Below, piece after piece: positions 3,240 through 46,813 of a DNA stretch of 64,000 nucleotides (within the stretch, counting starts at the first letter, position 1; each line of letters opens with the position of its first letter). The stretch lies in assembly GCF_044324785.1 (NCBI RefSeq), contig NZ_CP172127.1; one strand, given 5' to 3'. Below the pieces are notes generated by a model, which was not told where the DNA came from, searched no databases, and was given only the letters and a program-made list of their open reading frames with translations. This DNA is from Escherichia coli (GTDB lineage Bacteria; Pseudomonadota; Gammaproteobacteria; Enterobacterales; Enterobacteriaceae). The position numbers and the translations under genes are program-made.

Positions 3240-4792
3240 ATGACCAGTCTTCAGCAGCGCGCGGAGCTTCATCGCCAAATCTGGCAAATTGCTAACGATG
3301 TCAGAGGTTCGGTCGATGGATGGGACTTTAAGCAATACGTTCTGGGCGCGCTTTTCTACCGTTTTATCAGCGAAAATTTTTCCAGCTATATTGAAGCCGG
3401 TGATGACAGCATCTGTTATGCGAAACTGGATGACAGCGTAATTACTGATGACATTAAAGACGATGCCATCAAAACCAAAGGCTACTTCATCTACCCAAGT
3501 CAGCTTTTCTGCAACGTAGCTGCGAAAGCAAATACCAATGACAGACTGAATGCAGATTTAAACAGCATCTTCGTTGCTATCGAAAGTTCTGCTTACGGTT
3601 ACCCTTCAGAAGCTGACATCAAAGGTTTGTTTGCTGATTTCGATACCACCAGTAACCGCCTGGGTAACACCGTTAAGGATAAAAATGCCCGCCTGGCCGC
3701 GGTTCTGAAAGGGGTTGAAGGATTAAAACTTGGTGACTTCAACGAACATCAGATTGACCTGTTCGGCGATGCCTATGAGTTCCTGATTTCTAACTATGCG
3801 GCGAATGCTGGTAAGTCAGGCGGCGAGTTCTTTACACCGCAGCACGTCTCTAAGCTGATTGCACAACTGGCTATGCACGGGCAGACCCACGTTAACAAAA
3901 TCTACGACCCGGCAGCAGGTTCCGGTTCGCTGTTGTTGCAGGCTAAAAAACAGTTCGATGACCACATCATCGAAGAAGGCTTTTTCGGTCAGGAAATCAA
4001 CCATACGACCTATAACCTGGCGCGTATGAACATGTTTTTGCACAACATCAACTACGACAAGTTTGATATCAAGCTGGGCAATACGCTGACTGAGCCGCAC
4101 TTCAGAGATGAAAAACCGTTTGATGCCATCGTTTCTAACCCACCGTATTCGGTGAAATGGATTGGCAGCGATGATCCGACGCTGATTAACGATGAGCGTT
4201 TTGCCCCAGCTGGCGTCCTGGCCCCCAAATCAAAAGCTGACTTCGCGTTTGTATTACATGCGCTGAACTATCTTTCTGCCAAAGGTCGTGCTGCGATTGT
4301 CTGCTTCCCGGGCATTTTTTACCGTGGCGGCGCGGAGCAGAAAATCCGTCAGTATCTGGTTGACAATAACTATGTCGAAACCGTGATTTCACTCGCACCG
4401 AACCTGTTCTTTGGCACCACCATTGCCGTAAATATTCTGGTGCTGTCTAAACATAAAACGGATACCAAAGTTCAGTTTATTGACGCCAGCGAACTGTTCA
4501 AAAAAGAGACTAACAACAACATCCTGACCGATGCCCATATAGAAAAAATTATGCAGGTATTTGCCAGCAAGGAAGATGTTGCTCATCTGGCGAAATCTGT
4601 TGCGTTTGAGACTGTTGTCGCGAATGACTATAACCTGTCGGTGAGCAGCTATGTGGAAGCGAAAGATAACCGCGAAATTATCGATATCGGTGAGCTGAAT
4701 GCTGAGCTGAAAACCACGGTCAGCAAAATCGACCAGTTGCGCAAAGATATTGATGCGATTGTGGCTGAAATTGAAGGCTGCGAGGTGCAGAA

Positions 4793-4796
<4 letters not shown>
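3240..4796 (+). CDS. hsdM: Type I restriction-modification system methyltransferase subunit HsdM (type IC-like, EcoR124/Ecoprr family)
   Basis: 518-aa ORF with AAGGA ribosome-binding site; N6-adenine methyltransferase motif NPPY ([11 protein letters not shown]) and AdoMet motif DPAAGSGSL. Gene order M-S-R with hsdS starting inside the hsdM stop (ATGA) matches type IC organisation. Confidence 0.9.
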
Positions 4797-5962
<1,166 letters not shown>

Positions 5963-6083
5963 TTGACCATTATTACAGACCGGACCATCTTAATATCCGG
6001 TCAGTATATAGACTATTTTTTACACGCCGGAAGTCACCATTAACCCCCTTCCGGCCCTTGCCAGACGGCACAAAGGATGCGCT

Positions 6084-9000
6084 ATGACTCATCAAACACA
6101 CACCATTGCTGAATCCAATAACTTTATCGTTCTTGATAAGTACATCAAAGCTGAGCAAACAGGCGACAGCTATCAGAGCGAATCGGACCTGGAACGTGAA
6201 CTGATTCAGGACCTGCGGAATCAGGGCTATGAATTTATATCCGTAAAATCACAGTCGGCGATGCTGGTCAATGTTCGACAACAGGTTCAGAACCTCAATG
6301 GTGTGGTGTTTAATGACAGCGAATGGCGACGTTTCACGGAGCAGTATCTGGACAACCCGAGCGATGGTATTCTGGATAAGACCCGTAAAATCCATATCGA
6401 CTATATTTGCGACTTTATTTTTGATGACGGGCGTCTTGAGAATATCTATCTGATAGATAAAAAGAATCTCATGCGCAACAAGGTGCAGATTATCCAGCAG
6501 TTTGAACAGGCAGGTTCTCACGCTAACCGTTATGACGTCACGATCCTGGTTAATGGCTTGCCGCTGGTGCAAATCGAACTGAAAAAGCGCGGCGTGGCGA
6601 TTCGTGAGGCTTTCAACCAGATACATCGTTACAGTAAAGAGAGTTTTAACAGCGAAAATTCTCTGTTTAAGTATCTGCAACTGTTTGTCATTTCTAACGG
6701 CACCGATACCCGTTACTTTGCCAACACCACAAAGCGTGATAAAAACAGTTTTGACTTCACAATGAACTGGGCGAAATCAGACAACACGCTGATTAAAGAC
6801 CTCAAAGATTTTACCGCTACCTTTTTCCAGAAACATACTCTGCTTAATGTTCTGGTGAACTACAGCGTGTTCGATATTAGCCAGACGCTACTGGTGATGC
6901 GACCGTACCAGATTGCCGCCACCGAACGAATCTTATGGAAAATCAACAGCTCCTATAAAGCGAAAAACTGGTCTAACCCCGAAAGTGGTGGCTTTATCTG
7001 GCACACTACCGGTTCTGGTAAAACACTGACCAGCTTTAAAGCCGCGCGTCTGGCAACAGAACTGGACTTTATTGATAAAGTCTTCTTCGTGGTCGACAGG
7101 AAAGATCTCGATTACCAGACCATGAAGGAATATCAGCGTTTTTCGCCAGATAGTGTTAATGGCTCGGAAAATACCGCAGGCCTTAAACGAAATCTGGATA
7201 AGGACGATAACAAAATTATCGTCACCACTATTCAGAAACTTAATAACCTGATGAAAGCAGAAAGCGACCTGCCTGTATACAATCAGCAAGTGGTGTTTAT
7301 ATTTGATGAATGCCACCGCAGCCAGTTTGGAGAAGCGCAGAAAAACCTGAAGAAGAAATTCAAACGCTATTATCAGTTTGGTTTTACCGGTACCCCTATT
7401 TTCCCGGAAAACGCTTTAGGTTCAGAAACGACCGCCAGCGTATTTGGTCGTGAATTGCATTCATATGTGATTACCGATGCGATTCGAGATGAAAAAGTGC
7501 TTAAATTCAAGGTGGACTATAACGATGTGCGGCCACAGTTTAAGTCTTTAGAGACAGAAACCGACGAGAAAAAACTGAGTGCGGCTGAAAATCAACTGGC
7601 GTTCCTTCATCCCATGCGTATTCAGGAAATCACGCAATATATCCTGAACAACTTCCGCCAGAAGACCCACCGTACTTACCCCGGCTCCAAAGGTTTTAAT
7701 GCCATGCTGGCAGTAAGCAGCGTGGATGCCGCGAAAGCCTATTACGCGACATTTAAACGGTTACAAGAAGAAGCCGCTAATAAATCTGCAACTTATAAAC
7801 CACTGCGTGTTGCAACAATCTTCTCCTTTGCCGCTAATGAAGAACAAAATGCCATTGGTGAAATTTTCGATGAAACTTTTGATACCAGCGCAATGGACAG
7901 CAGTGCTAAAGAGTTTCTTGACGCTGCAATTCGTGAGTATAACAGCTATTTTAAAACTAACTTCAGCACCGACAGTAACGGTTTTCAGAACTACTATCGT
8001 GATTTAGCCCAACGGGTTAAAAATCAGGATATCGATCTGTTAATTGTCGTGGGGATGTTTTTAACCGGCTTCGATGCTCCAACATTGAACACGCTATTCG
8101 TCGATAAAAACTTGCGTTTTCACGGTCTGATGCAGGCATTTTCCCGCACCAACCGCATTTATGACGCCACTAAAACCTTCGGTAACATTGTCACTTTTCG
8201 GGATCTGGAACGCTCAACCATTGATGCCATAACGCTGTTTGGTGATAAAAATACCAAAAATGTGGTGTTAGAAAAGAGTTATGCAGAGTATATGGAAGGT
8301 TTTACTGATGCTGCCACCGGTGAAGCCAAACGCGGCTTTATGGCAGTAGTTTCAGAACTGGAACAACGGTTCCCTGACCCTGCCAGTATTGAAAGTGAAA
8401 AAGAGAAGAAAGACTTCGTAAAACTGTTTGGTGAATACCTGCGTGCCGAGAACATTCTGCAAAACTATGATGAATTTGCCACGCTGAAAGCCCTGCAACA
8501 AATCGATCTTAGCGATCCTGTTGCGGTAGAAAAATTCAAAGAAGAACATTATGTGGATGATGAAAAGTTCGCTGAATTACAAACGATTCGTCTCCCTGCT
8601 GATCGCAAGATTCAGGATTACCGTTCAGCCTATAACGATATTCGTGACTGGCAGCGCCGTGAGAAAGAAGCTGACAAAAAAGAAAAATCAACCACCGACT
8701 GGGATGACGTGGTTTTTGAGGTCGATTTGCTGAAGTCTCAGGAAATAAACCTGGATTATATCCTTGGACTGATTTTCGAACACAACAGACAAAACAAAGG
8801 TAAGGGCGAAATGACCGAAGAGGTCAAACGCTTAATTCGTTCAAGCCTTGGGAACCGTGCCAAAGAAGGATTGGTGGTCGATTTTATTCAGCAAACGAAC
8901 CTGGATGATTTGCCGGATAAAGCCAGCATCATTGACGCGTTCTTTACCTTTGCTCAACGCGAACAGCAACGTGAAGCAGAAGCATTGATCAAAGAAGAAA

Positions 9001-9200
9001 ATCTCAATGAAGAGGCGGCGAAACGCTATATTCGCACGTCTTTAAAACGCGAATACGCCACCGAAAATGGCACGGAATTAAACGAGACATTGCCAAAACT
9101 CAGTCCGTTAAATCCGCAATATAAGACGAAAAAACAGACGGTTTTCCAGAAGATCGTCGCGTTTATTGAGAAGTTTAAAGGTGTAGGCGGGCAGATATAA
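6084..9200 (+). CDS. hsdR: Type I restriction enzyme endonuclease/translocase subunit HsdR (type IC-like)
   Basis: 1038 aa; superfamily-2 helicase motifs TGSGKT (Walker A) and DECHRSQ (DEAH box), N-terminal nuclease region; AAGGA ribosome-binding site; follows hsdMS as in type IC loci. Confidence 0.9.
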
Positions 9201-19520: not shown

Positions 19521-20062
19521 GGTATTGATACGGGAGATTATGCCGTACAGGTACGACACGTTATGTCGTACCAAAGGGGAGTGGATAGAAAAAATGGCGA
19601 AGATGCGAAAAGTTTATTAATGCATTGAAAAAGATGAATTAATAATGAACTTGGGTAAAAGCGCCATCAAAATACGACACGACCTGTCGTATTTTGTGTT
19701 AGCCGGGAAAGGATATCTGCTACTTACTAAAATGATTTAGTGCTGAAAATATTTGTAAGCCAATAAATAGACCGGTATTACGGAGTAACGCCCAGGCTAT
19801 GTTAACGAGCCCGCTGTTTTATTGGCTCAAAAAACATATCCCAGAGATGATCAGCCATACCCTCGTTAGTGAGCAAGGTATCCCTTGAGTAGCCATGGCT
19901 GAAGACGCCCATTGATGGGCGAAAACCAAGGTTCTGGCCGTTAGAACAGTTATGTCGTTAAACACATCACCACCATATGCCATCCGGCTCACTTCGTCGG
20001 CCAAATTAGTGTGATATTCTTTTCAGAATTCCTGTTGTATCCACAACATAAGGCGATGATTG

Positions 20063-23000
20063 ATGGAACAGTCTCTCAATTTTGAAATGTTGCGCAGCCA
20101 GTGGCCGGAACTGGCTGAACTCGCGTGTATGGCGGAACGCTATGTTCACTCCGATCCGGAAAGCTGCCTGGTTAAGCTGCGCAACTACACCGAATTGATG
20201 GTGCGCTGGTTGTATCGTCAGGAGCGGTTGCCGGAAGGTATTAAGGCTAATCTTTACGATTTAATGAATGCTGATGTCTTTACCAGCATGATGCCGGAAG
20301 CCATCATCATGAAAATGGATGCGCTGCGTATCCATGGCAACCGTGCCGCGCACGGCGGACGTATCAAAGCTAAAGATACCTACTGGCTGCTCAAAGAAGC
20401 GTATTTGTTGGGAATTTGGCTGTATGTTCGCTACGCCCACGGTAATGTTGATGACTGCCCCAAATTTACACTCCCTCCATTAACACAATCTTCAGGTCGT
20501 GCAGATGAAAAACGTCTGGAAGATGCAATCAAGGCTCAGGATGAAAGCCGTGAGCGCGAACTGGCGCTACAACGCGCACTACAGCAAGAACAGGAAAAGG
20601 CCGAACACCTCACTCAACGCCTGAATGAAGCCAGAGCGCGTAACCAGCATGTTGCCGATATTCTCTCTATTGATGAAGCTGAAACCCGCCGTCGCCTGAT
20701 TGACTCTCGCCTGCTTGCTGCTGACTGGAATGTAGGCGAAGAACTTAAAAATACCGATCAGGTTACACAGGAACATCCAGTTAAAGAACAGCCTACCGCT
20801 ACCGGTGACGGTTATGCGGACTATGTCTTGTGGGATGAGGCACACAAACCGCTGGCGGTGGTGGAAGCAAAAAAAACCAGCGTCAATGCCGAGCAAGGAC
20901 GAATTCAGGCCCGGCTGTATGCAGACTGGCTGGAAAAAGAATACGGTCAGCGTCCGGTCATCTTCTACACCAACGGTTACGATATCTGGCTGTGGGATGA
21001 CCATAAAACTCATGGTTATCCCCCGCGTCGGGTGTTTGGCTTCTACAGCAAGGAAAGCCTGCAATATCTTATTCAGCAGCGTGAAACCCGTCTACCGCTG
21101 AACAGTGTGCCGCACGTAAAAGACAACGAAGGTAAGGCCGTTGCCGGACGTTTGTACCAGCTTGAAACCATTGCCCGCGTTAGCGAACGGTTTACCAATA
21201 AATATCGTCAGTCATTAATCGTTCAGGCCACCGGCACCGGTAAAACCCGTGTAGCGATTGCACTGAGCAAACTGATGATTGATGCCCGCTGGGTAAAACG
21301 AGTCCTGTTTCTTTGCGACCGCAAGGAACTACGTAAACAGGCGGCGAATGCCTTTAATCAATTCACCAATGAGCCGCTGTATGTGGTCGGGAAATCGAAG
21401 AAAGCAGACAGGCAGAATGCCAGGATCTACATCGCCACCTATCCTGGTATGATGAAAATCATGGACCATTTCGATGTCGGTTATTTCGATTTGATCATCG
21501 CCGATGAATCCCACCGCTCTATCTACAACGTCTACGGCGATCTGTTTAAGTATTTTGATGCCCTCCAGATTGGCCTGACGGCCACGCCGATTGACATGGT
21601 GAGTAAAACCACTTTCGGCCTTTTTGGTTGTGAAGGACGTATTCCTACCGCCAACTACAGCCTGGAAGATGCCATCGCCGATAACAATCTGGTTCCCTAT
21701 GAGGTTGTCACACACACCACAGAATTCCTGCGCGAAGGCATCAAACGGGAGAAATTAAGCGACGCACAAATCCGCGAGCTGGAAGAACAAGGTATAGATC
21801 CCAATACGCTGGAGTTTGATGGCAAGGCGCTGGATGAGGCGATCTACAACAAAGACACCAACCGCTATATCCTGCGTAACCTGATGGAAAATGGCCTGAA
21901 AGATCGGGACGGCCAGTTGCCAGGTAAAACCATCATTTTCGCCCGTAACCACAAACACGCGCTGCTGTTGAATGAATTGTTCGACGATATGTATCCGCAG
22001 TTTGCCGGACGCTTCTGCCAGGTCATCGACAACTACGATCCCCGCGCCGAGCAACTGATTGATGATTTTAAAGGGCTGGATGAAAGCACCAACAAAGAGC
22101 TGACCATCGCTATCTCTGTTGACATGCTCGATACCGGTATTGATGTCCCGGAGATTGTGAATCTGGTCTTTGCCAAACCGGTCAAATCAAAAGTGAAGTT
22201 CTGGCAGATGATTGGCCGTGGTACGCGCCTCTGTCCGGGGTTGTACGGTTACGACGATAACGGCAAACCGCTGGATAAACAGAAATTCCGCATTTTCGAT
22301 CACTGGGGCAATTTTGAGTATCACGAGCTGCATGCCGAAGAGGCCGAAGTCACAGCGACAAAATCGCTTGCACAAAAACGCTTCGAAGCGTGGGTTATGC
22401 TGGGGGCCGCTGCGCAACGTAAATTCGACAAACAGGCGGTGGATTTAGTTGCTCACCAGCTTCGCGAGCAAATCAACGCACTGGATGAAAAGTCGATTGC
22501 CGTACAGGAAAAGTGGCAGCAAAAAGCGCAGTACAGTGATGAAAAGGTGCTGCGCCAGCTTTCTCCGAAAACACAGCAGGATCTGCTATCTATTCTAGCC
22601 CCGCTGATGCAGTGGCTGGACGTGCGCGGGCAAAGCGATGCCATACGCTTTGATATGGATATTCTGGCGGCGCAAACTGCCCGTTATACCAACCCGGAAG
22701 AGCTGGATGTGCTCTGGCCGGCCATCGTCGAAAAAGTGGAGCGCCTGCCGCCGCATTTGGCGCAGGTGCAGCAACAGGGACAACGAATCAATCAGCTTCG
22801 TGATCTAGGCTGGTGGAAGCAGGCCAGTCTGGAAGAGCTGGAGGATATCCGCATTCATTTGCGCGGTATCATGCACCTGATGGAAAAAGACACGACGCCG
22901 AAATTTGGTTCGATACAGGTGGATATTACCGAAGATGCGAACCTGATCCAGACGGAGACCCGCAAAACCAACATCCGTTCGATTGATTTCAAACTCTATC

Positions 23001-23476
23001 GCCAGCAGGTTCAGGGGGCGCTGGAGCCGCTGTTCCAGCAAAATCCGGTGCTGAAGAAAATCCGCAACGGCGAGCCAGTCACGCAAAACGAGCTTGATGA
23101 ACTGGCGAAGCTGGTGCTGATCCAGAACCCCAACGTTGATATCCGGGCACTGAAAGAGTTCTATCCGCAGGCAACCGCCAGCCTGGATAAACTTTTGCGT
23201 ACCATCATCGGGATGGACAGCGACGCGGTGGAAGTGCGCTTTGCTCAGTTCGCCGCTGATAACAGTCTAACCAGCCAACAACTGCGCTTCCTGTCATTGC
23301 TGAAAAACCACATTCGCGATTACGGCACCATTGAAATGCGGCAGCTCTTTGAACAGCCTTTTACGCATATCCACAACGAAGGCGTTACCGGTGTGTTCCC
23401 TGATATAGAGCAGATCGCCCGCCTGCAAAAGATAGTCGAAGAGCTGGGTGTTGTGACCGACGCAGCGACGGTATAA
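20063..23476 (+). CDS. hsdR: Type I restriction enzyme HsdR subunit (second type I system; family not assigned)
   Basis: ~1137 aa; motifs GYADYVLW...LAVVEAKK, Walker A QATGTGKTR and DEAH-like IIADESHRS; first ATG at 20063 (ORF track begins at an upstream TTG). Confidence 0.9.
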   Translation: MEQSLNFEMLRSQWPELAELACMAERYVHSDPESCLVKLRNYTELMVRWLYRQERLPEGIKANLYDLMNADVFTSMMPEAIIMKMDALRIHGNRAAHGGRIKAKDTYWLLKEAYLLGIWLYVRYAHGNVDDCPKFTLPPLTQSSGRADEKRLEDAIKAQDESRERELALQRALQQEQEKAEHLTQRLNEARARNQHVADILSIDEAETRRRLIDSRLLAADWNVGEELKNTDQVTQEHPVKEQPTATGDGYADYVLWDEAHKPLAVVEAKKTSVNAEQGRIQARLYADWLEKEYGQRPVIFYTNGYDIWLWDDHKTHGYPPRRVFGFYSKESLQYLIQQRETRLPLNSVPHVKDNEGKAVAGRLYQLETIARVSERFTNKYRQSLIVQATGTGKTRVAIALSKLMIDARWVKRVLFLCDRKELRKQAANAFNQFTNEPLYVVGKSKKADRQNARIYIATYPGMMKIMDHFDVGYFDLIIADESHRSIYNVYGDLFKYFDALQIGLTATPIDMVSKTTFGLFGCEGRIPTANYSLEDAIADNNLVPYEVVTHTTEFLREGIKREKLSDAQIRELEEQGIDPNTLEFDGKALDEAIYNKDTNRYILRNLMENGLKDRDGQLPGKTIIFARNHKHALLLNELFDDMYPQFAGRFCQVIDNYDPRAEQLIDDFKGLDESTNKELTIAISVDMLDTGIDVPEIVNLVFAKPVKSKVKFWQMIGRGTRLCPGLYGYDDNGKPLDKQKFRIFDHWGNFEYHELHAEEAEVTATKSLAQKRFEAWVMLGAAAQRKFDKQAVDLVAHQLREQINALDEKSIAVQEKWQQKAQYSDEKVLRQLSPKTQQDLLSILAPLMQWLDVRGQSDAIRFDMDILAAQTARYTNPEELDVLWPAIVEKVERLPPHLAQVQQQGQRINQLRDLGWWKQASLEELEDIRIHLRGIMHLMEKDTTPKFGSIQVDITEDANLIQTETRKTNIRSIDFKLYRQQVQGALEPLFQQNPVLKKIRNGEPVTQNELDELAKLVLIQNPNVDIRALKEFYPQATASLDKLLRTIIGMDSDAVEVRFAQFAADNSLTSQQLRFLSLLKNHIRDYGTIEMRQLFEQPFTHIHNEGVTGVFPDIEQIARLQKIVEELGVVTDAATV

Positions 23477-23490
23477 TACGCACATGACAA

Positions 23491-23516
23491 GCCCCGGCAG
23501 CGGGGCTTTTGTATTT
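23491..23516 (+). terminator. Rho-independent terminator between hsdR and hsdM
   Basis: GC hairpin GCCCCG-GCAG-CGGGGC followed by TTTTGTATTT, 15 bp after the hsdR stop. Confidence 0.7.
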
Positions 23517-23539
23517 AAAACAGGATATAAAAGCTAACA

Positions 23540-25174
23540 ATGATCACTGGTGACTTAAAAAGTAAAATCGACGGCCTGTGGGAAGATTTCTGGGTGGGTG
23601 GTATCACCAACCCGCTGACCGTAATCGAACAGATCACCTACCTGATGTACTCCCGGATGCTGGATACCCAGGAACAACGCGACGAGAAGCGTAAACAAAT
23701 CGCGGGTATTGATTTTAAACCGCGTTTTGCGCCAGAACAGCAGGAGTTCCGTTTCAGTCACTATAGCAACCTTGGCTCGGATGAGATGATGGAAGTGGTG
23801 CGCGATGGCGTATTCCAGCATTTTCGTCAGCTCGGCCTGGCTGATACATCAAAGGTGACGCTGCTGGGCAACTTTATGAAAGATGCCCGTCTGGAGATTG
23901 TTAAGCCGTCATTGCTGACCAAAGCGGTTGAGGTGATCAAAAACCTGCCATTGGATCGCGGCGATACCAAAGGCGACCTTTACGAATACCTGTTAAGCAA
24001 GCTGACCACTGCCGGGATCAACGGCCAGTTCCGCACGCCACGCCACATTATCCGCACGATGGTTGAAATGATGGAGCCGAACCCGGCCCGCGGCGAGATG
24101 ATTTGCGATCCGGCCTGTGGCACCGGTGGTTTTCTGGCAACCAGCTATGAATATCTGCTGGAGAAGTACAGCTCGCTGGAATCCATTCATACTGAGATTG
24201 GCACCAACGAACGTGGCGAGCTGGAAGAGCAAAAAATCTTTACCGGCGATCTGCTGATACCGTGGCGTAACCATGTGGATAACAATATGTTCCACGGTTA
24301 CGACTTTGATACCACAATGCTGCGTATCGCCGCCATGAACCTGATTATGCACGGCGTGGAAGCGCCGGATATTCACTATCAGGACACCATGAGCCAGAGC
24401 TTCAGCACTAACTTCCCTCAGGCAAGTAAAAACGCTTTCAACCTGATTCTGGCGAACCCGCCGTTTACCGGTTCACTGGACGAGGAAGATATCGACTCCA
24501 CGCTGTCGGCAATGGTGAAAACCAAAAAAACTGAACTACTGTTCCTGGCGCGTATTCTGCAAATGCTGAAAGTGGGCGGGCGCAGTGCCACTATCGTGCC
24601 GCAGGGCGTGTTGTTTGGCTCCAGTAAGGCGCACCAGTCACTTCGCAAAACGCTGGTGGAAGATAACCAACTGGAAGCGGTGATCAACCTGCCTTCCGGT
24701 GTATTTAAGCCTTACGCTGGCGTGGCAACGGCTATCCTGATCTTTACCAAAGGCGGTCAGACGGACGAGGTCTGGTTCTACGATCTGCAAAATGATGGCT
24801 ACAGCCTGGATGACAAGCGTAACCCGATTAAAGACAACGACCTGCCGCATCTGCTGGCAAGCTGGAAGCATTACCGTACTTTGCGTGGTTTGCCGGTAGA
24901 TAACTTTATGGGTGAGAAGTTAGCCTCGTTGCTTAAACAGCAGTACCCGGAAGGGATTGATGCTGGCGTTGATTTTAAAGATCGCACTCAGTCGGCGTTC
25001 GTAGTTCCAAAAGAAGATATTGCTGCGCAGAAATACGATCTCTCTATTAATCGTTATAAAGAAGTGGTGTATCAGGCGGAGGAATATGAAGATCCGAAGG
25101 TGATACTGAAACGATTAAAAGATCTGGAAAAAGAGATTCTGGCGGATTTGGATGAGCTGGAGGGGATGCTGTGA
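23540..25174 (+). CDS. hsdM: Type I methyltransferase subunit HsdM (second system)
   Basis: 544 aa; FRTPRHI, AdoMet-binding DPACGTGGF and catalytic NPPF motifs. Confidence 0.9.
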
Positions 25175-26349
25175 GTTGGCCGATGGTGAAGTTAGGCGAA
25201 ATTTTTACTATATCTCGAGGGGGGTCTCCAAGACCTATTCAAGATTATATTACTGACTCCTGTCATGGAGTAAATTGGATAATGATTGGTGATACTGAGC
25301 CAAATTCAAAATACATTAGACATACAGCAAAAAAAATAAAGTTTGAAGGAGTGAAAAAATCCAGAAAGGTCTACCCTGGAGATTTATTACTTACAAACTC
25401 TATGAGTTTTGGGCGTCCATATATACTTGATGTTGAAGGATGTATACATGATGGATGGTTGGTTCTAAGTCCTAAAAATAATCAAATACATATTGATTAT
25501 TTTTATCATTATTTAAATTCTCCAGCTGCAAAAATCATCATATCAAACAAGGCTGCTGGTGCAGTTGTAAAAAATTTGAACTCAGATATCGTGAGAAACT
25601 TGGAAATTCCGTTCCCTCCATTTGCGGAACAGGTAAGGATAGCTTCAACTCTCGATAAAGTCGATGGCATACGTCAAAAACGCGACCAAGCCATCAAACT
25701 GGCTGATGATTTTTTGCGTGCTACGTTTTTAGCGATGTTTGGTGATCCTGTTGAAAACCCGAAGAGATGGGATGTTGCTTCTTTGTTAGAATATGGTTCA
25801 TTTAAAAATGGAATGAATTTTACGAAAGGTGAGTCAGGCTCTGTACTGAAGTGCCTGGGAGTTGGCAATTTCAAATCACTAGCAACGATTACCTGTATGG
25901 ACAATATCGGTGAAATTGAATTAAATACTCTCCCTTCAGATGATTATCTTTTGAAAGATGGTGATATCGTCTTTGTCCGTTCTAATGGTAATAAAGCCTT
26001 GGTCGGAAGATGTCTTACTATTTATCCAGGCAAAGAGAAAGTTACATTTAGTGGATTTTGTATCCGCTACAGAATAGAAAATACTGCAATCACCCCAGAA
26101 TATCTTAACTTTCTCTTCCGTACACCTTCAATGAAACAGCAAATGTTAAGCGGGGGGCAAGGAGCGAATATTCAGAATATTAGCCAAGGTACCTTATCCG
26201 CACTCAGGATACCAGTCCCTCCCTTAGAAAAACAACAGGCATTTTCTAAAGTAGTGAGTTTTCACTCGGCACTAATGGAAAAACTAGATATTAATACAGT
26301 TGAAATAGAAGATATGTTTGACTCAATCAGTCAACAATATTTTAATTAA
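25171..26349 (+). CDS. hsdS: Type I specificity subunit HsdS (second system)
   Basis: 392 aa; start overlaps the hsdM stop (GTG at 25171, or ATG at 25183); two AT-rich variable regions plus conserved HsdS helices. Confidence 0.85.
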   Translation: MSWPMVKLGEIFTISRGGSPRPIQDYITDSCHGVNWIMIGDTEPNSKYIRHTAKKIKFEGVKKSRKVYPGDLLLTNSMSFGRPYILDVEGCIHDGWLVLSPKNNQIHIDYFYHYLNSPAAKIIISNKAAGAVVKNLNSDIVRNLEIPFPPFAEQVRIASTLDKVDGIRQKRDQAIKLADDFLRATFLAMFGDPVENPKRWDVASLLEYGSFKNGMNFTKGESGSVLKCLGVGNFKSLATITCMDNIGEIELNTLPSDDYLLKDGDIVFVRSNGNKALVGRCLTIYPGKEKVTFSGFCIRYRIENTAITPEYLNFLFRTPSMKQQMLSGGQGANIQNISQGTLSALRIPVPPLEKQQAFSKVVSFHSALMEKLDINTVEIEDMFDSISQQYFN

Positions 26350-27097: not shown

Positions 27098-30000
27098 TTA
27101 TTTTTTGAACTCAACCAGTCTCTTATATTGGGGGGTATTAATTAACTTTTTCTTAGCTTTGATAATATCGACCAAACAGATTTCTATTTCCTCAGCACAT
27201 CCTCGTTGATTATCCATAATCAAACTGATAAGTTCTAATGTTTGAGATGGAAATTTATTTGGTATCTCTGACTCGTATAATTTTTTCAGTGTATAATGAG
27301 GCCATTCAAATGGAATGATCCACGGTTTTACAGTATCGAATATATCCTGAAACCTATCCTGGCCCGCAATACAGAGTTGCACTAAATTCTCTGAAATTCC
27401 CGGCGTCCTTAACTTTTGAGATTTTGGCCATATCTTCTTTAAAAATATTTTTATACAGTTATCCCAATATTCAGAATATTGTTCTCCTGAGCTTTCAATT
27501 GCATCTACAAGAGTATTAGTTGAGATTATCAGGCTCTCCGATGGAAGATTTCTAAACGCTTTTTGATAATCGTCAAGAACATAGTCTTTTGTCGGTTCAA
27601 GTGCAGCATATGTCAAAAAGATAGTATATTGTTTTTTAGCATCAGTATCTCCAAGATCTTGATAGTGTTCCGCTGTTTTCAAAAAAGCTTGTTTAAATGC
27701 AGCAAGCAATGGGGCATAAAGACGAGGGGTCCATAAGAAACCAGGCCATACTGATTTTGCTTCAAGAAAATTACTATCCCAAATAAATAATGGTAGAAGG
27801 TACTTTTTCGCCCAATTTGTGTCAACTCTGAATAATGGGATCAAATTTGAGGCTAAAATAACTCTGGAATTTCTGAAAGAGATATTATGGGTGTCACATA
27901 GCTTTGTGAAAAAGACTTTCAATTTATCTGGTATGCCCTCATTATCATGCGGCTTACCATTGAGCCATATATTTATTAATGCTTGTGTAATATTTCCTAC
28001 AGGATGATTTATAGCTTGTATTATTGATTTATAATCATCTGTTTCATCGTAACTAAAATCTATAATACGCTGACAATATGTAGTATAAACATCATTCAAC
28101 TCACTCATTCCTGTGGAAATTTTCGCTAACCATTGAGCGAGGCTGTGCTGAATCTCAGGGAATAAATCATCTGGAATATTTAATAATAATGGTCCTATTT
28201 CTTGCCAGGACTCCTGAATCAGGTCTTTATCACACCAAGTCTGTAAACCTGAACGCCAATATTTGCATGGCCAAATATCCTCCATGGCTAATTCGCGAAG
28301 CACACAAACAATCATCGGTAAGTTTTGTTTACATATTTCGATCCAGTTATCACGTTCAAACGGAGATGATTTCTTATTATCAGCCCTTTCTCTTAACCAG
28401 TTGATGATGCCGTCCTTTGTATCTGGGACCATTTCTGTAATTATTTCCTCTTCAAAATCGGGATCTCCTGTTCCACTCATCCAATGCGAAAATTCGTCTC
28501 TTTCATTTGTGGTCAATTTCCAGTAAGGATGTTTTTCTGATAAAAAATCCAATTTGTTCTGTGCATTTATATTGAGCTTTACACCTGAAAATTGTAGTTT
28601 TGATAAGAACAACCATATATTTCTTTCGACTATATTTTCCCATTCATTCTCATTAATAGAAATATTGAATAATTCCTGTGAATATCCTAGTGTTATTGCA
28701 TTTTCAAGCTTTCGTTGTTCAATGGCAGTTAGTGTTTTACCTTGCAAAACGAAGAGTCGGCAAACTTCACGATGAGTATCAATAGCCCACAACCAATAGC
28801 CATTTTGTTCCAGTAATAGATTCACCCATTCTTTAGCATCAATGCATTCATTATAACTGGCAGAAAAAATGACCAAACGCTTAAATACTGGATATGGAAA
28901 TGACCACCAATTTAAAGCAAGTTTTTTAGCTTTGTTTTTATCTATTTCATAGATTTGCAACCAAGAATCTCTCAAAAGTTCAATTAGTTTCACCCAATTA
29001 CGATAACCTCTATTTTGCCAATGAGGCGTAATTGATGGTAAGTCCCAAAAAGATCGATCACTTGCACTTATGGAATTATCATTCAGTTCAAATTGTAAAT
29101 CCATCGCATCAAGAAGTAATTGTTGAAGATCATCAAACAAGGATGGCAAGATTTCCTTCCATATTGATTTATTTTCTAAATCTTGTAGCCAATAAAGATC
29201 TGTTGATATATTTAATTCATGCCTTACAGATTGTGAAATATTTTTTTCATTTTGGGATGATTTATTAAAATTTAGTTGAAAAGGTTGTTGCAGGATAAGG
29301 GTAGGCGCTAAAATTTTTCTTAGCGCTAACCGGCAAGCCATATTGAAATTGCCATGTTGAAATTGATCTATCCAATAATTATTTTCATATACAGATGAAT
29401 TGGTCCCTATTCTTCCTGCTAAGAATAAACGCCAAATAGCTCGTAAATTCTGAGATGGGATCGCATGTAGTCCTTCTTGCTTGATACGTTTGAGAGACTG
29501 CTCCTCATTGTTTCTTTCTAATCGTTCAATCTCACTCAACCTATTACTTATTAAATTTGATAACTGGGGATGCAGTTTTCCCCCTTGCTTTGCTAACCAA
29601 ATGATTAAGTCAACGTTACCAATATGTTTTATCAGCCATAAACAAATATATACCATAACAGAATCCCACTGACAAAATTCGCCACCAAAAGAAGCTAAAC
29701 TCATTCGTGGTGAAAGTTTGTATGAGGAAGGGCGATTAATCAGGCTAAATTGAAGATTAGGATCAAATTCAGAATGGGCCGGGGTATTAAAGCGAGGTAG
29801 ATCTGGATATCTATAAGATTTTTTTTCAAATTCCCATAACCAACTTAGTGTGGGAGCAGGATTCATTTCTGCCAGGCGTTTTGCGGGCTTACCGGAATTA
29901 TCACTTAATGCCCATAAAACCCTTCCAACAAAATTATCCTCTTGAGTACTTGTCGAAGGATGGGCAATTACATATTGGGCTACAATTCTTTCTTTACCCA

Positions 30001-30889
30001 TACTTCCATTGTTATATATTTCTCCCCATATTTTTAATGTCTCATGAAGTAATTCATGCTTCTTAGTCGTTTTGTACAAAACAGGAATGACCCCTTTGGC
30101 TTCCCAAATTTCAGCCGTTGTAGATTCTTCATTTGGTTTATAATCTGCAAAGGCATATGCTTGAGGGGTATATTCGCCTAACATCCTATCTGCTGCTAAA
30201 GCATCCATCATATAGCGTAATACAGGATCATTAATACTATATCCTATAAAACAAACAACATAGTTTCTAAATAGTTCACTTACAAATCTGGCAGCCCATC
30301 TTTCTGTTAAATAAGCACATCCGAAATCACCACTGGTAACTACCAGACGGTTCAACTCTGTATGATTTTTTTTATCATGAGGTAATATTCCGTGCAAGTA
30401 AACCACTCCATTCCATCTACTATTTTTTGGAACAGGTAACATAGGTGCCAAATATGATGTTAGTTTCTTCTCCATATTTTTCGCAGCTATGTCAAAAAGA
30501 TGATCAAAATTTGTGGTGACAAGTCGTATGCGCCCACCTTGATCTTGAGATAATTGTAAGAGAGCATTATGAGTTGTTAGGGCATTTTTTCTTCGAACCT
30601 TTGGTTTCAATATCTGAGACAATGCATAGCGTACAGTTTGTTTATTTCCTACTATTCTTCTCTCAAGAAGTTCTAATGTTGTATCATATTGGTAAGCTTT
30701 ATAGGCGGCTTCTTCGAGAGCATTCCGTGTTTCACCGATTCTTTGATATATGTTGTCAACCAAATCTCCAAACCCCGGTAATCCAGCAGGATATGAAATT
30801 CCCGCTCCGCAGAAGAATACAACTTTCCCCTCTTCGTGTGCTTGTAGTAATGAATCGGGAATATCTGGACCATTAGTAATAAACTGCAT
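27098..30889 (-). CDS. Large SIR2-domain protein (1263 aa): N-terminal sirtuin-like NADase domain plus ~1000-aa helical C-terminal region; candidate defence-associated sirtuin (DSR-like) single-gene defence protein
   Basis: N-terminal Rossmann motif VVFFCGAGISYPAGLPGFGDL (GAGIS), TTNFDHLF (TTN-D motif) and a conserved His in VYLHGIL, as in SIR2/DSR/ThsA NADases; no similarity to housekeeping CobB is evident; monocistronic on the minus strand. Confidence 0.7.
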   Translation of the reverse strand: MQFITNGPDIPDSLLQAHEEGKVVFFCGAGISYPAGLPGFGDLVDNIYQRIGETRNALEEAAYKAYQYDTTLELLERRIVGNKQTVRYALSQILKPKVRRKNALTTHNALLQLSQDQGGRIRLVTTNFDHLFDIAAKNMEKKLTSYLAPMLPVPKNSRWNGVVYLHGILPHDKKNHTELNRLVVTSGDFGCAYLTERWAARFVSELFRNYVVCFIGYSINDPVLRYMMDALAADRMLGEYTPQAYAFADYKPNEESTTAEIWEAKGVIPVLYKTTKKHELLHETLKIWGEIYNNGSMGKERIVAQYVIAHPSTSTQEDNFVGRVLWALSDNSGKPAKRLAEMNPAPTLSWLWEFEKKSYRYPDLPRFNTPAHSEFDPNLQFSLINRPSSYKLSPRMSLASFGGEFCQWDSVMVYICLWLIKHIGNVDLIIWLAKQGGKLHPQLSNLISNRLSEIERLERNNEEQSLKRIKQEGLHAIPSQNLRAIWRLFLAGRIGTNSSVYENNYWIDQFQHGNFNMACRLALRKILAPTLILQQPFQLNFNKSSQNEKNISQSVRHELNISTDLYWLQDLENKSIWKEILPSLFDDLQQLLLDAMDLQFELNDNSISASDRSFWDLPSITPHWQNRGYRNWVKLIELLRDSWLQIYEIDKNKAKKLALNWWSFPYPVFKRLVIFSASYNECIDAKEWVNLLLEQNGYWLWAIDTHREVCRLFVLQGKTLTAIEQRKLENAITLGYSQELFNISINENEWENIVERNIWLFLSKLQFSGVKLNINAQNKLDFLSEKHPYWKLTTNERDEFSHWMSGTGDPDFEEEIITEMVPDTKDGIINWLRERADNKKSSPFERDNWIEICKQNLPMIVCVLRELAMEDIWPCKYWRSGLQTWCDKDLIQESWQEIGPLLLNIPDDLFPEIQHSLAQWLAKISTGMSELNDVYTTYCQRIIDFSYDETDDYKSIIQAINHPVGNITQALINIWLNGKPHDNEGIPDKLKVFFTKLCDTHNISFRNSRVILASNLIPLFRVDTNWAKKYLLPLFIWDSNFLEAKSVWPGFLWTPRLYAPLLAAFKQAFLKTAEHYQDLGDTDAKKQYTIFLTYAALEPTKDYVLDDYQKAFRNLPSESLIISTNTLVDAIESSGEQYSEYWDNCIKIFLKKIWPKSQKLRTPGISENLVQLCIAGQDRFQDIFDTVKPWIIPFEWPHYTLKKLYESEIPNKFPSQTLELISLIMDNQRGCAEEIEICLVDIIKAKKKLINTPQYKRLVEFKK

Positions 30890-31038: not shown

Positions 31039-32004
31039 ATGCCTTTAGATTTAAGTAAAACTTTAGTTATTGGCATCAGCGCGACTGCGCTTTTTGATAT
31101 GAGTGAATCAGATCACATGTTTCGCGAAACCTTTGTGACTGATCCTGATAGCGCCATTGAAAAATACCGCGCTTATATGCTAGAACACGAAAACCAACCT
31201 TTACAGCCCGGAACAGGCTACCCCTTAGTCAAAGCGTTGCTGGGTCTGAACCAGTACCGTCAACCGGATGATAAATCGCCGTTGGTTGAGGTTGTTGTGA
31301 TGTCACGTAACAGCCCTGATACCGGTATCCGTGTTCTGAATACTATTCGCCATGACAGGCTCGATATCACTCGATCGGCCTTTACGGCAGGCGAAACCGT
31401 TGCCGATTACCTTGATGCCTTTGATGTGGATCTGTTTTTAACGACCAACGTCGAGGATGCGCAAAAGGTGATTGATTCCCGATTCTGCGCCGCTGCAATC
31501 CTGAAAGATCCTCCTTCCGACGCATCTGATATCCCGGAAGGGCAAGTGCGCATTGCTTTTGACGGCGACGCGGTACTTTTTTCCGATCAAAGCGAACTGG
31601 TTTATAAGACCCAAGGAATGGCTGCCTTTCATGCTCAGGAAGACGCGCAGCAGGATATCCCTATGGAAGAGGGGCCTTATGCCACTTTGCTAAAAAAAAT
31701 AGCCAAGCTTCAGGAACGATTGCCGACCCGCGTTGAGTATTCTCCTGTTCGTATTGCGCTGGTGACAGCCCGAAATAGCCCTTCGGAAATGCGCGTTATT
31801 AAAACGCTAAGAAGCTGGGGGGTATATGTCGATGAAGCTTTTTTTCTTGGCGGTGTAGAGAAAACAAAAGTTCTGAAGGCGTTTAAGCCACACATTTTCT
31901 TTGACGATCAGGATGTACATTTGATCGCGGCTGCAAAGGTAGTACCTTCTGGTAAAGTACCTTATGCCAGTAACTCCGAACTGGCAGAACGTGAAGCATC
32001 GTGA
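31039..32004 (+). CDS. HAD-superfamily 5'-nucleotidase-like protein (321 aa)
   Basis: HAD motif I-like FDGDAVLF (DxDxV); overall resemblance to the bacterial/eukaryotic cytosolic 5'-nucleotidase family from memory; divergent from the SIR2 gene with a 149-bp intergenic region. Confidence 0.55.
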   Translation: MPLDLSKTLVIGISATALFDMSESDHMFRETFVTDPDSAIEKYRAYMLEHENQPLQPGTGYPLVKALLGLNQYRQPDDKSPLVEVVVMSRNSPDTGIRVLNTIRHDRLDITRSAFTAGETVADYLDAFDVDLFLTTNVEDAQKVIDSRFCAAAILKDPPSDASDIPEGQVRIAFDGDAVLFSDQSELVYKTQGMAAFHAQEDAQQDIPMEEGPYATLLKKIAKLQERLPTRVEYSPVRIALVTARNSPSEMRVIKTLRSWGVYVDEAFFLGGVEKTKVLKAFKPHIFFDDQDVHLIAAAKVVPSGKVPYASNSELAEREAS

Positions 32005-32081: not shown

Positions 32082-32957
32082 TCAATGCTCTCCTCTGAAC
32101 ACCTCTTTTCTGTGCCATTCAACAAACTGCTCGCCCGGATAATTTTCTTTAACCGGTGGCAACGCAATCGCCTTTCCCGCAAAATCCCAGAACAGTCGCT
32201 GTACCACTCCACCACCATTTACCGCGCCGGAAACCACCACACGCATATTTTCATCCAAGCCAATCGAACCGCGATCAAACGCTTTATGATGGATTGCGCA
32301 CAATGCCAGGCCATTAGGTACTTCACAAGGGCCATGGTGCTGCTTCCATCTGATATGAGCGGCTTCCAGAGCAATCGGCGCATTGTCGTGGCGCATGTTA
32401 AAGCCGCAGATAGCGCACTGATAATTGTAAGCACGTAGCACCATCTGGCGAAACTTCGGATCGCGTTGACGGAGAGAGGTGCGAATATCAAAACCCATCT
32501 CGTCAGCGATCTCTTCCTGAATACTGGCCGGGAAATGCGCCTCCAGGAGCTGCTGCGCCAGCGTATCAATTAACCTGTGATTTTTTGCCACCAACGCAAA
32601 ATTATCGGCATCAAATCCACCAGCAACATTATATTCAATGAGTTCTCGTCGGGGCGGCTGGCGGCTACCACTGGTTGAGCACAGTTCCGCGTTATGTAGT
32701 TCCCAGAAGCCATCGCCCTTCAGACGCCAGAACGGCATGTCCGGGCGCTGGTCACGGCGCTGCGGTCCATAACGTTCCAGGAGATCCAACAGGGGCTCGT
32801 AGATTTCAGAACCATAGTTAAACAGGCGACCATGACCCTGCCGATAGTGTGAGAGAACGTACAGCAGCAATAATGGCTTATGTGGCGCACGTTGTTCGCC
32901 TTTGCGCCAGATGGTGATATTTGATATCGCTTGCTTTAGGGTTTTGTCAGAGGTCAT
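32082..32957 (-). CDS. HNH-motif nuclease with uncharacterised N-terminal domain (candidate modification-dependent type IV restriction endonuclease)
   Basis: C-terminal HNH-like motif YNYQCAICGF...AAHI...LCAIHHKAFD; start set at the first in-frame ATG (the ORF track begins at a TTG at 33002); monocistronic. Confidence 0.55.
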   Translation of the reverse strand: MTSDKTLKQAISNITIWRKGEQRAPHKPLLLLYVLSHYRQGHGRLFNYGSEIYEPLLDLLERYGPQRRDQRPDMPFWRLKGDGFWELHNAELCSTSGSRQPPRRELIEYNVAGGFDADNFALVAKNHRLIDTLAQQLLEAHFPASIQEEIADEMGFDIRTSLRQRDPKFRQMVLRAYNYQCAICGFNMRHDNAPIALEAAHIRWKQHHGPCEVPNGLALCAIHHKAFDRGSIGLDENMRVVVSGAVNGGGVVQRLFWDFAGKAIALPPVKENYPGEQFVEWHRKEVFRGEH

Positions 32958-33172
32958 TGCGTTGGAGAATCCATGAGCACATATTTGCGATGATGCTCGC
33001 AACTATATGTACATTCAAGGCATTATTGCAGACATCCTTTTTCTCTGGCGGTTCTGTACCTGGCAGATAGAATTCTGATAACAACGGTAAAAAATACAGC
33101 GACCAACCAGTCCTAAGCGGGCTGGTTGGTCTTTTAAATTTAAACATCAGCCGAGGAATAACGGCATTCAAC

Positions 33173-34441
33173 TCACTCGCCATTACCCCGATTGATCTTC
33201 GCATAGTCAAACGGCGTAATCGCTCTCTCCCGATTCGCATCCAGAAAATCGGCCCACCACTGCAACATCAGCTTGCGCTCATCCAGATGTTCCGCTTTAT
33301 GGATATACGCCGCTCGCACCGAATTGCGCTCCATATGACTCATCTGTCGTTCCACCGCATCCTTCGACCATAACCCGGACTCAATTAACGAGCTACAGGC
33401 CATTGTGCGGAAGCCGTGGCCGCAAACTTCAACCTTAGTGTCATAACCCATCACCCGTAGCGCACTGTTCACCGTGTTTTCACTCATGGGCTTACGCGGA
33501 TCGTGATCGCCAATAAAAATCAGCTCATGCTCACCACAGAACTGCTTTATCTGCTTCAGGATCGCCAGCGCCTGCTTTGAAAGCGGCACCAGATGCGGTG
33601 TGCGCATCTTTGTTCCTCGCTGAGAATGTTTCACGCCGGGAATCGGTTCTCGCTCAGGAGGGATGGTCCACATTGATGTTTCAAAATCGATCTCTGACCA
33701 ACGAGCAAAACGCAGCTCACTGGACCGAATAAAGATAAGCAGAGTGAGTTCTGTCGCCCAGCGGGTTAGCGGCCTGCCGGTATAGCCGTCTATTTTCTCA
33801 AGCAACTCAGGGATGCGCTTTAACTCCAGCGCCGGACGATGCTGTCGATTACTGGAAGCAACCGCCCCCGCCATCTCTTGCGCCGGATTGTAATCAATTA
33901 ACCCGCTTTGCACTGCATAACGCATGATGGCCGTGGTGCGCTGTTGAAGGCGGGAAGCCACTTCAAGGCGTCCGGATTTCTCCACGGCTTTAATAGGAAT
34001 TAACAGATCGCGGGTGCCTAGTTCAGCAATATTGCGAGTACCAATTGCCGGGAAGATATTGTCCTCCAGGCTCTTTTTTACACGATTAGCATGATCTTCC
34101 GACCATTTTTGGTTGGTTACGAACCACTCTCTGGCAACCTTCTCGAAAGTAATAATCTCTTTCGCCTGCTCTTCTTTCACAGCACGCTTATGCTCACGAG
34201 GATCGATACCAGCAGCTACCAGCTTTCTGGCCTCTTCCCTTTTCTTCCGCGCATCCGCCAGTGAAACATCCGGGTAAACGCCGAACGCCATCAAATGTTG
34301 TTTACCGCCAAAACGGAAACGAAATCGCCAATACTTTGAACCGCCAGGTTTTACAAGTAAGGACATGCCGTCGCCGTCAACAAGTGAATACTCTTTCTCC
34401 TCTGGTTTCGCAGAACGAACTTTAGTATCCGTTAGGGCCAT
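33173..34441 (-). CDS. intB: P4-family tyrosine integrase (IntB-like), adjacent to the tRNA-Leu 3' end
   Basis: 422 aa from MALTDTKVRSAKP...; catalytic-domain motifs of phage integrases (HGFRTMA..., HxxR region); followed by a hairpin plus U-tract terminator at ~33088..33131 on the minus strand. Confidence 0.9.
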   Translation of the reverse strand: MALTDTKVRSAKPEEKEYSLVDGDGMSLLVKPGGSKYWRFRFRFGGKQHLMAFGVYPDVSLADARKKREEARKLVAAGIDPREHKRAVKEEQAKEIITFEKVAREWFVTNQKWSEDHANRVKKSLEDNIFPAIGTRNIAELGTRDLLIPIKAVEKSGRLEVASRLQQRTTAIMRYAVQSGLIDYNPAQEMAGAVASSNRQHRPALELKRIPELLEKIDGYTGRPLTRWATELTLLIFIRSSELRFARWSEIDFETSMWTIPPEREPIPGVKHSQRGTKMRTPHLVPLSKQALAILKQIKQFCGEHELIFIGDHDPRKPMSENTVNSALRVMGYDTKVEVCGHGFRTMACSSLIESGLWSKDAVERQMSHMERNSVRAAYIHKAEHLDERKLMLQWWADFLDANRERAITPFDYAKINRGNGE

Positions 34442-34640
34442 AGTGGTCTTCCTTCCATTGGTATCTCGTGAGTATACAAGCAATATCGAATCGGCAAATA
34501 TACTCATTAGTATACTCACAAGCCTGTTGATGTGGGTTGAGTCAGGTTGACTTCAGTTGAGGAGAAAAGCTGGAAAAGCCTTGTGTAGCGCGGATTTCAG
34601 GCATAAAAAAAGACCTCAGTTGAGGTCTATTTACATACTT

Positions 34641-34725
34641 TTGGTGCCGAAGGCCGGACTCGAACCGGCACGTATTTCTACGGTTGATTTTGAATCAACT
34701 GCGTCTACCGATTTCGCCACTTCGG
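34641..34725 (-). tRNA. leuX: tRNA-Leu (anticodon CAA), leuX
   Basis: Reverse complement reads GCCGAAGTGGCGAAATCGGTAGACGCAGTTGATTCAAAATCAACCGTAGAAATACGTGCCGGTTCGAGTCCGGCCTTCGGCACCA, an 85-nt type II tRNA with CAA anticodon and CCA end. Confidence 0.97.
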
Positions 34726-34921
34726 CACTGAAGAGGTATGCGGAAAACGTTGTGGATTATACCTGTCGCACGCCACCATGCAAGCGCCAGCTTGCTCGCA
34801 CCTCGCTAAGTGCTGAAATTTTCAGCATTGCATACAGCGATGTGTAACCTTTGTCACACTCCAGGCACCCCGCCCTGCCATGCTCTACACTTCCCAGACA
34901 ACACCAGAGAAGGACCAAAAA

Positions 34922-40993: not shown

Positions 40994-41070
40994 GTTATTT
41001 TCTCTTCATTACACGTATTCTCTTTGCCGGACGTTGCCTATACTCCAGGCAGGAAACTGGAGGATATCTC

Positions 41071-42573: not shown

Positions 42574-42691
42574 GTCAGACGTGATCTGTGCCCCTCACCC
42601 TAACCCTCTCCCCAAAGGGGCAAGGGGACCGTTCGAACTCGTATTTGACTTTGTCAACAATAATAAAGGGAGCTTTCGCTCCCTTGTTAGA

Positions 42692-45137: not shown

Positions 45138-46652
<1,515 letters not shown>

Positions 46653-46654
46653 TT

Positions 46655-46800
<146 letters not shown>

Positions 46801-46813
46801 AGAAGCCCCATAT

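Follow-up and report, generated by a model that had tools for sequence, protein, structure and literature searches.

The locus examined here raised the question of what a solitary HNH nuclease, encoded directly beside an integrase gene in Escherichia coli, recognizes in DNA. A preliminary description, made from the letters of a 64-kb stretch of E. coli DNA (hereafter the window, meaning the whole stretch analysed), had presented the ORF at 32082..33002 on the minus strand as such a nuclease with an unknown N-terminal domain of no obvious known fold, and had filed it as a candidate type IV restriction enzyme. We conclude with high confidence that the gene product is an EcoWI-type SBD-HNH endonuclease, i.e., a restriction enzyme with a sulfur-binding domain (SBD) and an HNH domain that depends on phosphorothioate (PT) in DNA.

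Gene model and family assignment

The ORF is present in the window, and its translation contains every string quoted for it (PHKPLLLLYVLSHYRQGHG, FWRLKGDGFWEL, CAICGF, AAHI and CAIHHKAFD); the gene also adjoins an integrase, as had been said, with the integrase ORF (33173..34519) directly upstream and beside a tRNA-Leu(CAA) gene. The 306-residue form of the protein that was given, however, is the maximal ORF read from the first TTG, and we prefer the ATG at 32957 as the start. Because RefSeq gene models in E. coli strains W, LY180 and JNE141411 are 876 nt long, the NF045808 profile match begins at residue 6 of the resulting 291-residue form, and full-length homologues have 289-291 residues, this ATG is most likely the functional start codon. 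The nuclease CDS (32082..32957, minus strand, 291 codons plus stop), supported by the ORF, NF045808 and the match to WP_000199891.1, encodes a protein with a computed mass of 33.43 kDa and a pI of 8.3. By the same RefSeq models, profile and homologue lengths, the 15 extra codons of the TTG ORF (32958..33002, minus strand) are most likely a non-coding 5' untranslated leader.

Our search matched the 291-residue protein over its full length to NF045808 (family name "phosphorothioated DNA-binding restriction endonuclease"); the score was 445 bits, the cut-off being 180, with E = 9e-134 and with residues 6-288 aligned to positions 2-284 of the 284 in the profile. A Pfam-A scan found HNH_2 alone (residues 181-235, E = 1e-9), and PADLOC returned only generic HNH and mREase_IV matches to the nuclease. 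The copy of Pfam-A that we used evidently lacked the newer PF26340 or else missed it, and since such a copy sees only HNH_2, this may be why the N-terminus had looked unknown. Precomputed Pfam annotation of homologues with 68-100% identity gave PF26340 (DNA-SBD_ScoMcrA) together with PF13391 (HNH_2). Searches of PDB sequences with phmmer agreed with this layout, as residues 4-142 aligned to the SBD of ScoMcrA (5ZMO, E = 2e-6), with the SprMcrA SBD (7CC9) also matched, and residues 174-248 aligned to the HNH domain of TagI (6GHS).

An AlphaFold2 model, for which 131 diverse relatives with 33-58% identity were aligned, had a mean pLDDT of 95.8 and a pTM of 0.91. A fold comparison of the N-terminus, which had been suggested in the preliminary description, was made by running Foldseek on this model, and complexes of SBDs with PT-DNA came out on top; the best PDB match was 5ZMO (TM 0.81 normalised to the target, rmsd 2.7 Å over 156 columns), followed by the SprMcrA SBDs 7CC9, 7CCD and 7CCJ (target-normalised TM 0.68-0.77, with 0.77 for 7CCJ) and the Hga SBD 8H0L (0.68-0.71). 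All matches of the N-terminal domain in the PDB were to SBDs, while the C-terminal half matched the modification-dependent HNH enzymes TagI, VcaM4I and EcoKMcrA. Neither Pfam nor the model, which shows two domains with helices between them, gave any SRA or other extra reader domain in addition to the SBD and HNH_2. The N-terminal domain said to have no obvious known fold is thus an SBD, as identified by PF26340, by structures 5ZMO, 7CC9 and 8H0L, and by the NCBIfam name. The broader idea of a solitary HNH nuclease with a modification-reading N-terminus fits, and among the readers proposed for it the "sulfur-binding-like" option was the right one by NF045808, phmmer and Foldseek alike. We place the SBD at residues 1-170 (32448..32957, minus strand) on the evidence of phmmer, Foldseek, conservation and PF26340 on homologues, using as its boundary the construct of Liu et al. 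(2018; PMC6224610), and the end of the linker plus the HNH (beta-beta-alpha-Me) domain at residues 171-291 (32082..32447, minus strand) by Pfam HNH_2, phmmer and Foldseek.

Comparison with characterized enzymes shows which parts of this architecture are shared. ScoMcrA of Streptomyces coelicolor (5ZMM, 5ZMN and 5ZMO) shares with the window protein a homologous SBD and its sulfur pocket (H-R/K ... Y/M-P) as well as a C-terminal HNH domain, and it shows PT-dependent restriction; however, at 561 residues it has in addition a head domain at the N-terminus and an SRA domain, neither of which is found in the window protein, and the two SBDs have only about 24% identity. ScoMcrA prefers GpsGCC, also cuts DNA with 5mC or 5hmC, requires Mn2+ and has no fixed cutting distance (PMC7461809). 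SprMcrA of Streptomyces pristinaespiralis (7CC9, 7CCD and 7CCJ) has the same SBD-HNH layout without an SRA, though its SBD and that of Hga (8H0L) are about 18-19% identical to the window SBD, and SprMcrA is a Mn2+-dependent enzyme with a weak H-N-R catalytic variant and variable cuts at N(11-13)/N(10-12) (PMC7461809). EcoKMcrA, TagI and VcaM4I share with the window protein a related HNH_2-type nuclease domain and the logic of a reader joined to an HNH cutter, but their readers are not SBDs and recognize modified cytosines rather than backbone sulfur.

Residues of the sulfur cavity and the nuclease site

Pairwise alignment to 5ZMO paired H26, K27, M74, P75 and R78 of the nuclease with H116, R117, Y164, P165 and A168 of ScoMcrA, and these five residues form its predicted sulfur cavity. 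The pocket motifs were both found, the H and R/K within 'HKP' and the proline within '(Y/M)PFW'. Conservation among the 131 relatives was high at H26 (120/131), K27 (129/131) and P75 (130/131), with F76 kept in at least 90%. Position 74 is more variable, having Y in 74 relatives and M in 6, so that the nuclease carries the minority M at the "lid" of the cavity. Mutants of ScoMcrA bear on each of the three differences: R117 is replaced by lysine in most homologues and R117K is neutral, Y164M binds more strongly, and A168R is tolerated (Liu et al. 2018, PMC6224610). In the C-terminal half, the predicted zinc ligands C181, C184, C220 and H223 (CxxC...CxxH) and the predicted HNH catalytic residues H201, N215 and H224 are all present, and across the 131 diverse homologues these positions are invariant or at least 96% conserved.

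A near-identical protein from E. coli W and LY180

E. coli LY180 is a derivative of E. coli W, and the two strains have identical proteins at the leuX locus. The nuclease matched this 291-residue protein, WP_000199891.1, which bears the NF045808 family name in the annotation of E. coli W, at 290 of 291 residues, the sole change being L37H (H37 in the window protein and L37 in the W/LY180 protein). The two proteins have the same length, mass and SBD-HNH architecture, and they occupy the same leuX slot, where tRNA-Leu, integrase, nuclease and 5'-nucleotidase are shared between E. coli W and the window. Between the window gene and that of E. coli W, 10 nucleotides differ yet just one amino acid does, a sign of purifying selection. 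The family varies at position 37 (R in 72, K in 16, Q in 14 and H in 6 of the 131 relatives) and H37 is likewise found in E. coli JNE141411, so a functional effect of H37 versus L37 appears unlikely. The family, the fold, the intact key residues and the orthology to a protein that has been tested are shown by the present analysis.

The W/LY180 protein is the one named "the E. coli ScoMcrA homolog" by Liu et al. (2018, Nat Commun, PMC6224610), who had the LY180 gene synthesised with its promoter from CP006584.1 4690337-4691716 (PMC6224610). In NC_022364.1, the RefSeq twin of CP006584.1, the gene lies at 4690841-4691716, and from these coordinates the synthesised fragment comprised the gene plus 504 bp upstream; the 504 bp upstream of the window gene are 98% identical to the cloned LY180 fragment. 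The purified SBD (residues 1-170) bound Rp-PT DNA and not the Sp form, binding was diminished by mutation of the cavity proline, and in DH10B the WP_000199891 gene restricted transformation when the incoming plasmid bore the dnd cluster of Salmonella (Liu et al. 2018, PMC6224610).

The published use of this near-identical LY180 fragment is also our reason for presuming a promoter upstream of the nuclease gene. Between the integrase stop and the nuclease ORF there are 170 bp (33003..33172, minus strand), which we regard as the presumed native promoter region and which contain a terminator-like hairpin at 33101-33131. A sigma-70 consensus scan of this 170-bp spacer found zero promoters.

EcoWI, its specificity and the proposed mechanism

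Lutz et al. (2020, Front Microbiol, PMC7461809) described EcoWI, from E. coli, as an SBD-HNH enzyme of 33.4 kDa (predicted mass) that depends on Mg2+ and is a dimer in solution. Its specificity is for GpsAAC/GpsTTC, with cuts at N7/N6 that leave a 1-nt 3' overhang; it is stimulated by two sites, and cuts hemi- and fully modified sites alike; dnd+ plasmids were completely restricted by it and transformation was abolished (PMC7461809). EcoWI has since served as the tool in EcoWI-seq (PMC9521924). Neither the main text and supplement of Lutz et al. (2020) nor the EcoWI-seq paper gives an accession or sequence for the enzyme. Going by the name (E. coli W, first enzyme), the matching mass and the architecture, EcoWI is very probably WP_000199891.1. 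Liu et al. (2018, PMC6224610) found about the same binding of the E. coli SBD, taken by itself, to GpsGCC, GpsAAC and GpsATC, whereas full EcoWI had a strong preference for GpsAAC/GpsTTC (Lutz et al. 2020, PMC7461809), and due to this difference the specificity given here is provisional.

The filing of the nuclease as type IV holds as far as modification dependence is concerned, but the fixed N7/N6 cut of EcoWI at a specific 4-bp modified site does not sit well with that label, which goes with loose specificity and a variable cut position. Lutz et al. placed EcoWI-like enzymes as Type IIM/IIS-like, since the cut falls at a constant distance from a defined modified site (PMC7461809). The choice between the two labels is a naming matter and not a mechanistic one.

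What we say of PT binding, sequence preference, cut geometry and restriction in vivo by the window protein comes from published work on the protein with 99.7% identity, and the mechanism that we propose draws on this protein and on the solved homologues. The N-terminal SBD would dock on duplex DNA containing an Rp phosphorothioate, with the sulfur entering a small hydrophobic pocket that would have P75 as its floor and the methylene groups of H26, K27, M74 and R78 as its walls, and with K27 forming a salt bridge to the phosphorothioate. The enzyme, presumably a dimer, would prefer GpsAAC/GpsTTC, the mark of Salmonella-type and E. coli B7A-type Dnd systems, and its zinc-stabilised C-terminal HNH domain would, with Mg2+, cut both strands at a fixed distance downstream (N7/N6, 1-nt 3' overhang). 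Host DNA, presumably unmodified at GAAC/GTTC, would be largely spared, and plasmids coming from dnd+ donors, or phages propagated on dnd+ hosts, would be destroyed on entry. The gene, the first cargo behind the integrase in a leuX defence island, would be expressed from its own promoter.

Setting in the leuX island

The integrase gene of this island (33173..34441, minus strand) encodes a tyrosine integrase of 422 residues from MALTDTKV, its maximal ORF extending to 34519, and has four differences from WP_001219046.1 of E. coli W, with an offset of 26 codons. An orthologue in Salmonella has the domains Arm-DNA-bind_3, Phage_int_M and Phage_integrase, a P4-type layout. ARAGORN placed the tRNA-Leu(CAA) gene, leuX, which is the integration site of the island, at 34642..34726 (minus strand), and the same leuX arrangement is found in E. 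coli W, LY180 and JNE141411 and in Salmonella. Past the tRNA, the order and lengths of the ORFs correspond to ahr, idnK, idnD, idnO, idnT onward, as at leuX in annotated Escherichia; this match to the surroundings of leuX places the nuclease gene, 170 bp downstream of the integrase, first among the cargo of an island integrated at leuX. A search of the window for a second copy of the leuX 3' end (the far att repeat), allowing up to three mismatches, found none, so the other end of the island lies outside the window or its repeat is degenerate.

Further into the island are a 5'-nucleotidase-like gene that is convergent with the nuclease gene (31039..32004; PADLOC candidate PDC-S08, 444 bits), Dsr1 (27098..30889; PADLOC, 1,607 bits), then a 228-residue protein that had no family match, and beyond it two type I R-M systems (20060..26349 and 3240..9200). 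The statement that the nuclease has no methyltransferase partner is thus true of its immediate neighbours, but the two type I systems stand elsewhere in the same island. An island of E. coli JNE141411 matches with 95% coverage and 97% identity, and its annotation lists the same genes together with WYL, GTPase, CbtA/YeeU, RadC, DUF932, DUF4942 and AbiEii; DUF932, RadC, CbtA/YeeU and DUF4942 are CP4-type modules, and no P4 satellite genes are listed in the annotation of this homologous island. The preliminary description had spoken of a P4-like element with defence cargo in the first position, and the P4-type domain layout of the integrase, the first-cargo position and the defence island agree with this in part, but judged by the annotated modules of the JNE141411 island "P4-like" is probably apt for the integrase only. 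The ORFs that we scanned in the 64-kb window gave no dnd or ssp gene, nor did the annotated JNE141411 island, and the HsdR proteins of the window type I systems had weak, sub-threshold helicase-domain similarity to dnd_restrict_1.

The adjacent 5'-nucleotidase-like gene invites two related proposals about what the nuclease does. We think it very improbable that natural alleles such as H37 versus L37 shift PT specificity, or that the nuclease and the PDC-S08 gene cooperate as a two-gene defence unit. The basis of these readings is a single variable residue or adjacency. It is likewise very improbable that the convergent pair forms a two-gene module in which cleavage products are fed to the nucleotidase or the two genes regulate each other. 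In favour of a module, the two genes lie side by side with a 77-bp gap in the window as well as in E. coli W, LY180 and JNE141411, and the cargo that follows is not the same (e.g., E. coli W has two hypothetical proteins where the window island has Dsr1); however, the nuclease gene alone restricts dnd+ DNA (PMC6224610, PMC7461809), the two genes are convergent and are thus not co-transcribed, and leuX orthologues in Salmonella with 96% identity have no nucleotidase beside them, as is likewise so for orthologues with 88%, 81%, 76% and 72% identity.

The neighbourhoods of these orthologues are varied. In Salmonella leuX islands the integrase and SBD-HNH gene are followed by DUF5677, FRG and a type I HsdR subunit; in Buttiauxella the neighbours are a TIR protein and a type I system; a 76%-identical orthologue in a second E. 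coli lineage adjoins McrBC; and the neighbourhoods in S. Typhi and Klebsiella differ again. We considered the 5'-nucleotidase as a general partner and rejected it, as it is absent beside orthologues in Salmonella, Buttiauxella, Klebsiella, the second E. coli lineage and a metagenomic contig. These varied neighbours indicate that the PT-dependent nuclease is a stand-alone unit.

Other readings of the nuclease

A further possibility is that the target is a base modification (5mC, 5hmC or glucosyl-hmC) and not the DNA backbone, as for EcoKMcrA, TagI and the SRA-HNH enzymes. The resemblance of the HNH half to TagI, VcaM4I and EcoKMcrA points this way, as does the ability of ScoMcrA to cut 5mC and 5hmC DNA (PMC7461809); but that activity of ScoMcrA sits in its SRA domain, and in the window nuclease, which has no SRA, the SBD runs straight into the HNH domain. 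In addition, the N-terminal domain matched SBDs only in the PDB, and on Dcm+ pBR322 the activity of EcoWI was limited to non-specific cutting or nicking (PMC7461809). We therefore find a base-modification target scarcely credible next to PT recognition. Equally hard to credit is that the gene is an inactive relic, decaying in its island or encoding a DNA binder that does not cut: type IV-like genes are often lost or inactivated and SprMcrA has a naturally weakened H-N-R catalytic triad (PMC7461809), but here the 291-codon frame is intact, the zinc and catalytic residues are all kept, the 10 nucleotide changes relative to E. coli W yield one amino-acid change, and the sequence upstream has 98% identity to a fragment whose promoter activity is proven.

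Distribution and meaning

DNA matching the PT-dependent nuclease gene was present in 241 of 5,426 complete E. coli genomes, and among the matches listed all 15 of the best-matching E. coli records carried the RefSeq name "phosphorothioated DNA-binding restriction endonuclease". There were 3,103 homologues with E-values of 1e-10 or less in a collection clustered at 90%, and 526 with E-values of 1e-30 or less among 50%-identity representatives, nearly all of them two-domain proteins of ~290-310 residues. Published work already covers the family, its fold, the mechanism of sulfur recognition and the activity of a protein with a single residue changed. The value of the present assignment is one of annotation, in that the leuX island can be described as a stacked defence island with a PT-dependent nuclease, Dsr1, two type I R-M systems and a PADLOC candidate, and it leads to the prediction that this strain would reject incoming DNA of dnd+ Salmonella or E. 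coli origin.

Neighbours of the SBD-HNH gene

Convergent with the nuclease gene and separated from it by 77 bp is a gene for a 321-residue 5'-nucleotidase-like protein (31039-32004, + strand). No NCBIfam model matched this protein, and in PADLOC it matched the phage-defence candidate PDC-S08 with 444 bits. The two genes are also adjacent in E. coli W, LY180, and JNE141411, where the cargo that follows varies, and no 5'-nucleotidase-like gene was found beside SBD-HNH orthologues of other genera. On the other side, the spacer separating the nuclease gene from the stop codon of the integrase gene contains a terminator-like hairpin (33101-33131). Two of its positions differ from LY180: a loop substitution, and a stem substitution that changes a C-G pair to a wobble or mismatch.

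Distant SBD-HNH orthologues (72-76% identity) were paired divergently with a ~215-residue PF26345 ScoMcrA_N protein, found (in the coordinates of each locus) at 5214-5864 in E. coli loci L004-L007 and at 5183-5821 in Klebsiella loci L010-L012, the Klebsiella protein having an additional weak HNH match. It looks as if the head domain of the Streptomyces coelicolor homologue ScoMcrA were encoded there as a gene of its own. This partner is absent from the window, where the integrase is the upstream neighbour of the SBD-HNH gene.

Other defence genes and extent of the island

A full-length PADLOC match (1,607 bits) identified a 1,263-residue SIR2-domain protein as Dsr1 (27098-30889, - strand), its gene having a very low G+C content of 35.5% compared with 46.7% for the window. 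Two hypothetical proteins occupy the Dsr1 slot in E. coli W, so the cargo at this position can be swapped. A 228-residue ORF (26371-27057, + strand), flanked by the genes for the type I S subunit and Dsr1, has no match in NCBIfam or PADLOC; its counterpart in the homologous island is annotated as a hypothetical protein.

The window also holds two separate type I restriction-modification systems, at 3240-9200 and 20060-26349 (both + strand). One has the order hsdM-S-R and strong matches to TIGR00497/TIGR00348. The other has the order R-M-S; its R subunit is EcoAI-like, and its M subunit shows weak similarity to MADS2.

The leuX 3' end was not found a second time in 1-34641, even with up to three mismatches allowed, which indicates that the far island boundary is outside the window or degenerate; the island is therefore at least ~34.6 kb long.

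Host lineage

Comparison with annotated genomes showed that the core-genome flank at 40000-50000 runs roughly from idnR to valS, with annotated matches to yjgR, lptF/G, pepA, and valS. Among 5,426 complete E. coli genomes, none is more than 97.9% identical to this region, so the host may represent a divergent Escherichia lineage and not a mainstream E. coli phylogroup.
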